A stretch of 64,000 bases of DNA, taken from Podarcis cretensis. Its lineage: Eukaryota. This document shows, piece by piece, positions 16,772 through 55,922 of this stretch; the stretch's first letter is position 1, and each line of letters starts with the position of its first letter. A program made the translations under genes and the position numbers. The notes under the pieces are model-generated. The model searched no databases, had not been told where the DNA came from, and saw only the letters and a program-made list of their open reading frames with translations. The stretch covers positions 79,112,001 through 79,176,000 of the forward strand of contig OX638154.1 in NCBI GenBank assembly GCA_951804945.1, written 5' to 3'.

Positions 16772-17585
16772 TAAAACTGCTTGAGTTTTGAATCTCTTTC
16801 CTTTTCCTTTGGATGGTTTTGTCATCTCTCCAGAGATTATTATTTTTTTTTACTAATATCTAACCCACTCACAGTAAAAGCCAAATAAAATAAAAGGCAT
16901 TCTGATTACGAACAGCCTGGCACACATTATCCGCCCCACGATGGCACATTTTTGTATTGACTCATCAGGGTTTGGGTTTTTTGTTTTGTCTTGCATCATA
17001 GCTACATTTTCTCATTCGACATTGGCCGGATACTCCATCATGTTCCTAAAGCAGCTATTTGTTATGCAAGGCCTGCTCCTGCAGTGTGACTGACTGATAA
17101 CTGCAGCTCTTTGAAACTGAACACTACATGATTAGACATGGTGCCAGAGCCTCTATTATGCACCAAAAGACTTTCTCGCCCTTAGCTACCTTTAAAAGAG
17201 GTTTGACATGTCTTAATCCCCACTTGATAAGGCTAACCGTGGGCCTCACTTCCCATGTTTGTTGGTTTCTCCGTGTGAGAAGTTGCCTGAAATTACATCA
17301 TGAGTGTAATTTCCCAAACTGGTTTGTTTCTCGCTGTGAAGGACTGCCCTACTGCCCCCTGTGTTTCGCACCTGCTTTGATGCAGAATCAGGCCACCAGT
17401 CAACAGTGCTTGCTGGCAGACAAGACAGGTAGATCCTACATGGTTGGATCAACATAGGATAGCCCATAAGGCTGGACCCTGATTGGTGTGTGTTCAACTC
17501 CTGAGTGACCAAGATGATGAAGGGTCTGGAAACCAAGCCTTATGAGGAACAGTTGAGAGCGTTGGGTGTGGTCAGCCTGGGGAAG

Positions 17586-18194
17586 TGTGCTGGTCCCGAG
17601 GGTTAACCGTGCGGCAAGGTCCGAGTCCAGTCCGAGGTCGAGGGTGCGGAATGGAGGCTGTCCGTCATAGGTGAAGCTGGGTCCAAGGCAGAGAGTCGGG
17701 TGAGGTCAGGAACTCTGGCAGAAGAGCAGGGCAGGGTGCAGGCAGGAACAGGCTACCAACAACGTTGCTCCTGCAACCTGGGACTGGGGCTGGCTGGCTT
17801 TTATCTGCCCCAAGGCATAGGGCGGGCCCGGTCCACAGGTGACTCGCCTCTCCTGGCCTGGAAGCGAGCACTCCTCCTGCAGGAACTTAGTTCCCTCTGC
17901 CTCTCTGCCCTGAGCCTCTGCAGCTCAGGAGAAGCTGGAGGGTTACCGGACCCAGAGGCAACCTCAGCTTCCCCTGACGGGGCTGAGAGTGGAGCACCTG
18001 CAGGCAATGGGTCCTCCATCCCCTCAGGAGCCAGAGCAGACTCAGCTGGTGCCTGCACCTGAGGATCCAGCACAGGTGAGGACCCTTCAGGCTCATGCCC
18101 CAACCCCAGCTCAGCTGGTTCTGGAGGTGGGCGATCCTGTGCAGGCTGGGATTCCTCAGGTTCAGCCTCAGAGTCTGAATCCCAGGCTATCACA
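17586..18194 (-). mobile_element. solo LTR (Gypsy-like) with an open frame across U3
   Basis: TGTG...CACA ends; TSD GGAAG/CGAAG; minus-strand ATAAAAG TATA-like box at about 17798-17804; frame from LTR nt 2 (VIAWDSDSE...RRSAR...) open to 17801. Confidence 0.8.
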
Positions 18195-18241
18195 CGAAGA
18201 GAAGACTGAGAGCTGTCTTCAAATATCCTAAGGGCTGTCAC

Positions 18242-18770
18242 TGTTGGATCAATCCATCAATCTCTGATGGATGATTTAGAAGGATTGGGTCCAGAATCAC
18301 TTTTGCTGTGCATGTGTTCCAGTATCCATACTCAGCAGAGTTACATCTCAACACAGCTCCTTCCGTGGAAGCATCTTTGGTGCTGAAGGTACACACAGTA
18401 GACAATAAACATTCATGGATGCCATGAAGAGTCAATCAAGTGTAGAGGTTGACCTGATAGGCATAAAAACATGTTGGTAGCAAATATATACAGACATTTC
18501 ACCACTGCAGTGGTCAAGGCATGCTCAGAGCGCTACAAGAGTCCAAGAGTCTCTCTCTGCTTCTCTCACCACAAGATGCAAGCAAGAAACTCACAACAAG
18601 TTACACAGAACCATTATCAGTACTTCCTGTGACACTGTGCATGTCCAAAGAACAGTTCCCACAGAAAACGTCCTTGCATAGACTAAACGGTCTCAGCCTT
18701 CTGCTGCTTCTTGAAACTTCTCTGTTTCTGGAACAAAGGATTCTCTCTCACACAGAGAGAATATCCAACA
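18242..18770. mobile_element. solo LTR (TGTTGGAT...ATCCAACA)
   Basis: 8-bp terminal inverted repeat with TG...CA; perfect 5-bp TSD GTCAC (18237-18241, 18771-18775); orientation not determined. Confidence 0.85.
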
Positions 18771-23297: not shown

Positions 23298-23780
23298 TGT
23301 CAGGGCCAACAGGAGAGAACAGGTTGTTTGCAGAACAGAGAAAGACAGTGACACGCCAGCTAACTTACAGTAAGTTTCTTTATTACATAAGCAGAACAAA
23401 GGATACACTGAGACTTCGAAGGGATGCTCCTTTCTGGCTGAAGCAATTGCTTTGATTGGCTTGTGCCTCCCACTTCATCCCATTCCCTCTGTGTCAGGCC
23501 CCTCCCTCTGTCTACAGTGAGTCCCGAGGGACCCTCTCTGTTTCTCCCTGGCTCTCTGTTCTGTGATATGCTTCAGACACCTTATTCTGGGGGTGGCGGC
23601 TTGCAGGCTGTCTGGGTGGCTCTGTGGCGAAGCTGCTAAGTCTGATCCCTATCTTTGCTCTGTGCTGGGGCACCTGCCTGTTTCTCATCTTCCTCCAAAT
23701 CCTCTCCCTCTGTGCTCTCCCTGGGGGGCCCTTGGTCAGGTGGTTTCCAACATTCTTCCTCATCCAGCCAGTCCCTGACA
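23298..23780 (-). mobile_element. solo LTR, TGTCAGGGACTGG family
   Basis: TGTCAGGG...CCCTGACA ends; minus strand starts TGTCAGGGACTGGCTGGATGAGGAAGAA like 40012 and 55337; minus AATAAA near 23379-23384; TSD degenerate (GCTGC/CCTAC). Confidence 0.75.
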
Positions 23781-26497: not shown

Positions 26498-27424
26498 TGT
26501 CAGGGACTGGACTGAGGAGGAATAGTGGGAGCAGCCCCCCTCTTTTTCTGAACCTTCCCAAGGGCAGGAGGACAGTATTGATTTAGAACAGTGGTTTGCA
26601 GAAGGGCACAAGTCCAGAGGGGAAAAGCTGGGAAATACTGGGTGAGGAACAGCTAGGAGAGGAAACACCAAGAGAGAGAGACAGCTGGCAGATTCAGTGT
26701 CCTTGGACAGCATTCCTGACACCCCTTCGCCCAAGACTAGAAGGGCTTGGAAAGTGTTAGAACAGAAAGCACAATGGCAAGAAGCTCAGCTTACCTGACG
26801 TTGGAGTGATGTAGATTAATGGGGACGAAGTGTTAGAATTCCTGCTCCATGATTGCAGTCATGAGATTGTTGTCTATCACATGAGGGTATATGTTTTGAC
26901 TCCACAGAGTGGGAAGTGACGGAGACAGGATGTTTGTGTTACTGTGTTCCGTGAGGTGGAAGACTTTTTCTTTTTCTTTTTCTCTTTGGTGTCTGATACT
27001 AGAGAGAGTGCTCTGTGTGTGTTTATATGCAAATAAAGTAGATTAGCCAAAATGCTGAGTTGTTGAGGTCTGTTACGCATGATGAGCAAACTCTGCGGAT
27101 CCCTAAGTGTGCCGGTGTCGGTTGGCATCGGTTGCTGTGATGTTCGGGCAGAAGAAAGCTTATGAAGCTCCCGAACAATTGACCAGGAGGGAGGGAACAT
27201 GCCAGTCGGGCATGTGTCTCTGCCAGGGTCCTACTCGAGTGTAGGCTGAACTCCTGACATGGAGGGGGTGAACCTTTACTGGGAGCAATGCCATTTTTGA
27301 GAGAGATATACGTCCATTTGTCTCTTGCTGTAATTATTAAAGAAACTCTGGTAAGAAGTCTCCTTTTGTTTGATCTTTTAATCACTGCCACCGGGGGAGG
27401 GTTCCAATACCCTGAAGCCTGACA
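26498..27424 (+). mobile_element. LTR-like element, TGTCAGGGACTGG family (right end uncertain)
   Basis: starts TGTCAGGGACTGGACTGAGGAGGAA; decayed acidic then SPKTRR frame; AATAAA near 27032; candidate end CCTGACA at 27424 with degenerate TSD GTAAG/ATGAG. Confidence 0.55.
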
Positions 27425-40011: not shown

Positions 40012-40600
40012 TGTCAGGGACTGGTTGGATGAAGAGGAGCGATAGCAGGCACCAGCCGGAGACCCACCCCCCCACTAGGGAAGCCTCAGAGGAGGAAGAC
40101 CCAGAGCCTGGGGAGTGGTGGTGGGACACCGAGGACAGGTCAGAGGATGAAAGAGGGGGGCAGAATGGTGGGAGGCTGAAGAAGCAACAGGTTTGAGTGA
40201 GAGAGAAGAGCCAGATGCAGAAAGCAGTGCAGACTCAAGACATGAAGCAGAGAAGGAGGAGGCAGAGGTTATAGAAACATTCACAGAGCTTGCCTTTCCT
40301 ACTGTAGCAAGCTCCACTCCCCTTTGTCTCCAAGATCACAGAGAGCTTTCCATATAACAGAACAAACAGCCTGTGTGGCCCCTCCCTGTGTAGTTTAAGG
40401 CTGCTTGGGAGAAATCTGGCTGGGGAGGAGACTTAATGGGAAGTAGAAGGCAAAGACCTTCAGTATGGCAACTGTTTCACTGGGGCCAGTCCTCTTCGCA
40501 GGCATTGCTGCCTGGTATGCTGTTTCTTTGAAGAAAGAGCTGACTTTTCTGCTTGTCTCTGCATCTCGAGTGCTGACCTGCATCTGAACCAGCCATGACA
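40012..40600 (+). mobile_element. solo LTR, TGTCAGGGACTGG family
   Basis: TGTCA...TGACA ends; perfect 5-bp TSD TTCAC (40007-40011, 40601-40605). Confidence 0.9.
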
Positions 40601-55336: not shown

Positions 55337-55831
55337 TGTCAGGAACTGGCTGGATGAAAAGGAGTGGTAGGAGGCATCAGCCAGAGAACCCCCTAGGGGA
55401 GCCTCAGGGGACAAAGGCTCATCGCTTGGGGAGTGGTGGGTGGTGAGACAGCTCAAAGGATGAAGTGAGGGGGTGGGCAGAATGGTTGGATGCTGAACAA
55501 GCAACAGGCTTGAGTGAGAGAGAGGAGCCAGATGCAGAAAGCAATGCAGACCCAGGACATGAAGCAGAGAAGGCTGCAACAGATTCACAGAAGCTTGCAG
55601 GTCTTACGGTAATCAGCTCTCCAAGAGCACGGAGGGCTTTGCATGTAGCAGAGAGCATAGAGTTTAAGACTGCTGGACGGGGAGGAGATTTAGTGGAAAG
55701 TAGGAGACACAGATAATCAGTTCTGGCAATTGTTTTACTGGGACCTTTCTTGCCTGTAGGTTTCTTGGTTTGTATTTTGTTTCCTTGAATAAAGAATGAA
55801 ATTTACTCCTTGTCTGGCACCCTGCCTTACA
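55337..55831 (+). mobile_element. solo LTR, TGTCAGGGACTGG family (right end uncertain)
   Basis: TGTCAGGAACTGGCTGGATGAAAAGG start, clear similarity to 40012-40600, AATAAA near 55788. Confidence 0.7.
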
Positions 55832-55922
55832 TCTTCCTTGAGTGTTTCTGCCTGGCTGGAATGTACCCTTGAACTCTGATAATATCTCTTTCTTCCCTGA
55901 ATGGAGAGTTGAGTGGGTGTGT

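Follow-up and report, generated by a model that had tools for sequence, protein, structure and literature searches.

In chromodomain-bearing Gypsy retrotransposons of lizards, the pol frame passes the integrase chromodomain and the PPT and then continues into the 3′ LTR, where it encodes a tail of 100–140 amino acids. This LTR frame is under purifying selection between subfamilies, which is weak in the acidic linker and stronger in the basic end. We consider it fairly probable that the LTR-encoded tail is a second chromatin tether, i.e. a flexible acidic linker with a basic tip that is predicted to grip nucleosomes.

The LTR at 17586 and its pol frame

The window analysed is a stretch of 64 000 nucleotides from Podarcis cretensis (assembly GCA_951804945.1, contig OX638154.1, positions 79,112,001 to 79,176,000 of the forward strand). 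It harbours a solo LTR of such an element, with the following features:

17586..18194, minus strand: solo LTR, 609 nt, of a chromodomain-bearing Gypsy retrotransposon (from genome matches and PPT-linked relatives)
18195..18199, no strand: one side of the target-site duplication (TSD), partner at 17581–17585; 4/5 bases alike
17804..18193, minus strand: 130-codon frame from LTR nt 2, which is the C-terminal extension of Gag-Pol/integrase in the 3′ LTRs of full elements
17933..18193, minus strand: acidic Pro-rich linker, predicted to be disordered, weakly constrained (composition, model and omega)
17882..17932, minus strand: Ser-Pro and, after it, a predicted basic helix under strong constraint (prediction made for the corresponding part of copy L100)
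17861..17878, minus strand: RRSARF in the window copy, an HMGN-like core
17797..17806, minus strand: TAA stop inside the TATA-like AGATAAAAGC (putative promoter role)

The LTR has the ends TGTGAT...AGCACA and is flanked by CTTCG and CTTCC. The adjoining stretches at 17500–17585 and 18195–18250 may be the remains of a single CR1-type LINE fragment that the LTR cut in two. As described in the first-pass annotation, the frame starting at LTR nt 2 is open for about 130 codons; exactly 130 were counted, up to a TAA stop at LTR nt 392 (window 17801–17803) within AGATAAAAGC. This frame stayed open in 57 of 5000 dinucleotide shuffles of the LTR, and some sense frame did so in 211 of 5000. The antisense strand is also open, for about 150 codons (window 17714–18166, plus strand). 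Neither AATAAA nor a canonical TATA is present in the window LTR, and the labels ‘U3’ and ‘TATA’ are used here for putative elements.

A genome search with this LTR returned 2381 first-look candidates, of which 40 were scored and the 30 best fetched. Most of these 30 best-scoring matches showed 5 bp duplications, as judged by eye, the copies of the family were spread across many contigs and positions, and the 130 codons were open in 24 of the 29 copies extracted (one 5′-truncated copy was dropped). When the genome was searched by pattern for purine tracts preceding the LTR start, 71 matches were obtained, from which 38 distinct loci with a junction of the type GGAGGGGGGATGG followed by TGT were fetched. 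In these relatives of the 17586 family from the same genome, a chromodomain is located directly upstream of the junction, a 5′ LTR lies about 5 kb away at most of the 38 loci, and the two LTRs of a pair are often 96–99 % identical.

The chromodomain was in frame with LTR nt 2 in 18 of the 37 scorable copies, with 14 and five copies in the other two frames and one copy unscored. One natural copy possesses a single 1544-codon frame comprising Gag, zinc knuckle, protease, RT, RNase H, integrase, SH3 and chromodomain, which runs 117 codons into the LTR. Pfam analysis of the L100 frame confirmed the order gag-PR-RT-RH-IN and placed a chromodomain at the integrase C-terminus (PF00385, E 9e-15, residues 1358–1405), i.e. 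elements of this family carry a true chromodomain upstream of the PPT. Paired TG..CA LTRs, a PPT and a short TSD are all present as well, and by the features tested the 17586 element is a Ty3/Gypsy chromovirus.

The first-pass annotation had proposed that the LTR encodes a long C-terminal extension of the integrase, and had named beforehand what would speak against it. The proposal held on each of these points: pol reaches the PPT without stopping and is in frame with LTR nt 2 in both LTR groups, i.e. the 17586 family and the TGTCAG-type LTRs described below; no shared in-frame stop precedes codon ~115–140 of the LTR frame; and codon-level constraint is present between subfamilies, whereas shifted frames show none. 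In raw RNA reads from a relative, coverage of the region between integrase and LTR is only about 0–5×, which is too thin for evidence of expression, and these reads are mostly in element-sense orientation, if the libraries were stranded; most LTR reads continue into unrelated flanks.

Nearly all out-of-frame copies of the 17586 family slipped at a single G-run, a G8 tract within the coding sequence about 25 nt before the 3′ LTR and just before the PPT, which varies by −2 to +2 (L073–L110). The in-frame spacer length is the mode, being found in 15 of 33 measurable copies, with the rest at −2 to +2, and 20 of 36 copies deviate in the length of the G8 run, compared with 0–3 for ten shorter runs. 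On a tree of 35 of the 38 copies (L094, L097 and L108 were left out), the out-of-frame copies were scattered, requiring 11 changes versus a shuffled mean of 12.0. The slips therefore look copy-specific, and a separate lineage of out-of-frame copies was rejected.

A mere assembly artefact was likewise rejected, since the length variants recur in independent contigs in three of four runs; the variants are thus real, with an uncertain in-frame share (in one run the minus-1 form accounted for 690 of 756 depth units). One shift ends pol at LTR nt 3–5 and the other about nine codons into the LTR, so every form of the G-run retains the chromodomain. The run could act as a switch between tailed and tail-less integrase, and the presence of a slip-prone run ahead of the tail suggests that the tail is not essential in every copy.

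VRDW LTRs and the TGTCAG clade

Four TGTCAGG(G/A)ACTGG elements at 23780, 26498, 40012 and 55337 had been described as unrelated to the 17586 LTR at DNA level, yet opening in the same frame. All four are present, as are the peptides quoted for them (VRDW and related), and blastn finds no likeness to the 17586 LTR. They had been treated as one family, but fall into three, i.e. 40012/55337 (81 % alike over about 240 nt), 23780, and the host LTR at 26498:

23298..23780, minus strand: solo LTR of a VRDW family, internally deleted, without RRSxRL; family frame constrained, putative link to pol
26498..27424, plus strand: host VRDW LTR in two segments, 26498–26830 and 27260–27424, 70–73 % like the pol-linked LTRs of L064 and L125
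26831..27259, plus strand: nested, different high-copy LTR (TGTTAG...CCTGACA)
40012..40600, plus strand: solo LTR with an exact 5 bp TSD, ending in a CpG-decayed RRSLRL-type motif; family frame constrained, putative link to pol
55337..55866, plus strand: a solo LTR belonging to the 40012 family; its 3′ end was placed approximately, from a CCTTG duplication

The element at 26498 is a nested one: the VRDW LTR, which ends at 27424, is interrupted by the different LTR of about 430 nt. The nested type gave 5031 first-look candidates in the genome. It was seen inside VRDW-type LTRs in at least three places, i.e. at about the same spot in the window and in L180, and reversed in L067, which may reflect an insertion hot spot or a recombinant LTR. 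The RRSxR-type tail that all of these LTRs were thought to share is found in the 17586 family and, in a form altered by CpG decay, in the 40012 family; the 23780 family and 26498-like copies lack it. When full-length copies of the 40012 and 23780 families were sought, no chromodomain turned up in 38 loci, nor in 50 loci, and we therefore only infer the link of these two families to pol.

LTRs of the TGTCAGGGACT type are also chromovirus LTRs: copies of the L115 type, L125 and L130 read from the end of the chromodomain into LTR nt 2, and among the 50 loci of this TGTCAG clade examined, the junction was in frame at 29 of the 33 that could be scored. A protein search revealed additional families. 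In a very young family of the clade, pol extends 101 codons into a 410 nt LTR in both complete elements obtained (a third fetched region lacked an LTR pair). The LTR pairs of the very young group (L279–L297, L299 and L301) are 99.8–100 % identical, and many copies possess a 1334-codon frame. This group has separate gag and pol frames, a chromodomain that by eye lacks the first and third cage aromatics, and a long acidic stretch before the PPT in addition to the LTR-encoded tail.

In a quick tree of the integrase ends, the TGTCAG families group together (SH-aLRT 96), and neither the 17586 family nor Anolis falls within their clade; the 17586 family is placed among frog, fish, gecko and Anolis chromoviruses, deep support being weak. 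At about 14.9–15.7 Mb of C8 in genome G000 (L112–L136), around 20 near-identical copies of a decayed chromovirus end share the same strand, which suggests that they form a tandem segmental array.

Selection on the tail and its basic tip

Selection was computed on natural copies, without a consensus, using 73 LTRs of the 17586 family. Between subfamilies, whole-frame omega was 0.24–0.66 in seven pairs, six with p<0.05 and one non-significant (p=0.17). The tip (codons 83–115) gave 0.09–0.46 and the linker 0.34–0.74, compared with 0.84–2.98 in shifted frames and 0.64–1.10 after the stop. Shared non-CpG variants comprised 45 synonymous and 61 non-synonymous changes (27 % synonymous expected, p=0.0004), and 13 and eight, respectively, in the tip. 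All four shared in-frame indels are multiples of three (18, 18, 3 and net 30 nt), while those shared after the stop often break the phase. With an omega of 1.32 versus its nearest relative, the window copy is itself a relic in neutral decay.

The same holds for other families. In the 40012 family (15 of 30 copies aligned), 18 synonymous and 25 non-synonymous variants were found (p=0.0045), and in the 23780 family (16 of 25 copies aligned) six and two (p=0.002), with the first widely shared stop of the nt-2 frame at codon columns 140 and 135, respectively. In both families the synonymous excess is limited to this frame; one shifted frame of the 23780 family is open to column 137, yet contains no synonymous versus seven non-synonymous variants. 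In the young group, tip omega over 36 codons was 0.06–0.08 in four of six pairs, with two pairs saturated, and linker omega was 0.30–0.72. Taken together, these data reject purine bias alone as the cause of the open frame.

In composition, the first 85 residues of the 17586 tail contain one K/R, 18 D/E and 16 P, and the last 45 contain 12 K/R. In a single-sequence AlphaFold2 model (mean pLDDT 58), the chromodomain is folded, the linker is unstructured with low confidence, and a helix with a pLDDT of about 87 lies immediately before the RRSxR motif. RRSARL is present in 44 of 73 copies of the 17586 family and CpG-type variants in 11 more (RRSAHL in eight, RRSACL in three), while in the 40012 family RRSLRL is intact in one of 15 copies, and most of the rest differ from it as CpG decay of Arg codons would predict. 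RRSxR[L/I] was found in only three lineages and is absent from the 23780, L117, L125, VREELEV and youngest families; tailed families lacking it, such as the young one with the tip KRFRKRP, have in common only a Ser/Thr-Pro and a basic stretch. Searches with the window tail in Pfam (no families), with the tail in PDB sequences (no match) and the ESM Atlas (no usable match), and with tail alignment A1 among short proteins (none among 13 candidates) do not show novelty.

The tail also occurs in protein databases. A Podarcis muralis UniRef protein (P0002) contains it at 91 % identity, and three Anolis carolinensis clusters (P0006, P0007 and P0009, with 17, 94 and 366 members) carry a tail; these proteins are 51 % identical over the whole alignment (pol). 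These automatic entries, named ‘Gypsy retrotransposon integrase-like protein 1’, already include the tail, while the record name says nothing of its LTR origin. In Anolis, the chromodomain is followed by about 100 poorly conserved acidic Pro-rich residues and the end SP..RRSARIAAK; RRSxR[LI] arose in 15–21 of 200 000 shuffles of these tails. Judging by a junction-like peptide, the Anolis tail is probably LTR-encoded, too. Another Anolis protein (P0017), which closely resembles P0007, has just 14 residues beyond the chromodomain and is possibly a frameshifted copy.

Function of the tail and related systems

As a chromatin tether, the tail would remain on the mature integrase, where the Ser/Thr-Pro and basic helix would contact nucleosomal DNA or histones. 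By analogy with HMGN, Dsup and Dot5, the last Arg of RRSxR[L/I], where present, may serve as an arginine anchor in the H2A–H2B acidic patch, and tail and chromodomain together would keep the integration complex bound to chromatin. Since not every tailed family has RRSxR[L/I], an acidic-patch reading cannot rest on the motif for all of them. Solo and 5′ LTRs would carry the tail sequence passively, because it lies upstream of the putative promoter with no pol in front of it; from the LTR anatomy, solo LTRs, including the window copy, would not make the tail peptide from their own promoter.

Other explanations account for part of these data. The region has a GC content of 63 %, about 4 % of the shuffles keep some sense frame open, and half of the full-length copies of the 17586 family are out of frame, as would be expected if the open frame were a by-product of purine- or GC-rich promoter DNA that pol merely enters without meeting a stop. 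Considering, however, that the synonymous excess is confined to the nt-2 frame in four families or groups, that shared indels are in phase, and that out-of-frame copies turn up in many parts of the tree instead of forming an inherited lineage, such an origin is extremely improbable. An acidic Trp segment acting as a targeting or activation motif had been suggested by the first-pass annotation, and Trp clusters do recur in the VRDW families, with mild constraint on the linker (omega 0.3–0.74). Selection nevertheless centres on the basic end, the clusters are not general, being missing from the Anolis tail and from the 17586 family (which has one Trp near the tail start), and the linker shifts in length by 18–30 nt and is barely alignable between species. 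It is thus very unlikely that the acidic/Trp segment is the functional part, whether as an activation or as a host-factor-binding motif.

The two remaining alternatives also take the tail to be functional. Every tail ends in basic clusters, the exact motif varying by family, and KRFRKRP in the young family as well as the Arg-rich tips equally fit nuclear import or plain DNA binding. The tip could accordingly be mainly a nuclear localisation signal of a translated and selected tail, possibly regulated by phosphorylation of the preceding Ser/Thr-Pro, with Ser/Thr-Pro-x-Arg/Lys as a candidate kinase site. A C-terminal signal of this kind is known for Ty1 integrase. On the other hand, an omega of 0.06–0.08 over 36 codons would be more specific than a simple localisation signal usually needs, and the same RRSAR[L/I] spelling in two lineages with pol only 51 % identical probably points away from it as well, which makes this role rather doubtful overall. 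The feature common to all families is a Pro-initiated basic helix and not the motif, which would suit a structural arm of the integration complex, engaged in non-specific DNA binding or helix-mediated integrase multimerisation without histone contact; this leaves the HMGN-like spelling in three lineages unexplained, and we regard it as unlikely.

Returning to the chromatin tether, it is tempting to speculate, albeit only tentatively, that squamate chromoviruses made the LTR promoter region into a second, swappable targeting module of the integrase. Some lineages would use an HMGN-type acidic-patch anchor; in the youngest, strong selection on the tail and the lost cage aromatics suggest that the tail took over targeting; and the slip-prone G-run may provide one family with both tailed and tail-less integrase. 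The tip is a short, conserved and testable peptide, and chromatin choice by vertebrate Gypsy elements is largely untested. Thousands of lizard solo LTRs are relics of a sequence with dual use, as coding sequence and putative promoter, and U3 conservation in these LTRs should not be taken for conservation of transcription-factor sites. Should the tip bind the acidic patch, the HMGN-like motif would extend to integrases, and the lizard elements would offer an animal parallel to the plant LTR-encoded CR motif and the foamy-virus Gag anchor.

The extension of pol into the 3′ LTR is already known from plant chromoviruses, and the lizard tail is a variant of it. According to PMC3059260 and PMC3605345, the gag-pol frame of the CRM group A enters the 3′ LTR, where the LTR encodes a putative targeting domain (the CR motif), and that of the beet chromoviruses Beetle and Bingo also extends into the 3′ LTR. 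The lizard ORF likewise runs into the 3′ LTR; however, the CR motif stands in place of a chromodomain, whereas the lizard elements, which belong to vertebrates, retain a chromodomain upstream of the PPT and gain a second module from the LTR. The accessible portion of PMC3601003 contains nothing on coding LTRs. Our search, which did not extend to subscription journals and Repbase, turned up no paper that describes the lizard tail or places an HMGN-like or arginine-anchor motif on the integrase of a retrotransposon, so that a prior mention is possible.

Cryo-EM shows that HMGN RRSAR (RRSARLSA) and Dsup RRSSR (RRSSRLTS) grip the acidic patch by an arginine anchor (PMC12487698), and RRSARIAT of Dot5 binds it likewise (PMC13347269); HMGN2–nucleosome binding is modelled poorly by AlphaFold 3 (PMC12487698). 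The lizard tails share the RRSAR[L/I] core and a disordered context with these proteins, and the Anolis RRSARIAA matches Dot5 in 7/8 residues. In contrast, the two residues after RRSARL differ from the SA of HMGN, the lizard motif sits on a retrotransposon integrase with predicted binding, and several sister families lack it. Foamy-virus Gag tethers via an arginine anchor that governs integration sites, and, as in the candidate lizard module, a retroelement protein thereby ties the integration complex to the nucleosome acidic patch, as seen in a structure for Gag and suggested for MLV p12 (PMC9040877). Unlike the LTR-encoded candidate on the lizard integrase, however, both are Gag products of retroviruses.

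With the V-clade (Sushi-/Amn-like) vertebrate chromoviruses, as presented in PMC2774666, the lizard elements share the Ty3/Gypsy domain order, the C-terminal integrase chromodomain, TG..CA LTRs, the PPT and a 5 bp TSD, while the lizard families carry a selected tail of 100–140 codons in the LTR. Most of the fish and frog relatives retrieved extend no more than 60 residues past the chromodomain and have no acidic linker with basic tip, and fungal relatives mostly lack such a tail, too. Among the 64 proteins with a located chromodomain, six have RRSxR in the tail, i.e. five lizard proteins and one short fungal one; in the fungal chromovirus protein (P0046), the motif reads RRSARS and lies in a tail of 24 residues.
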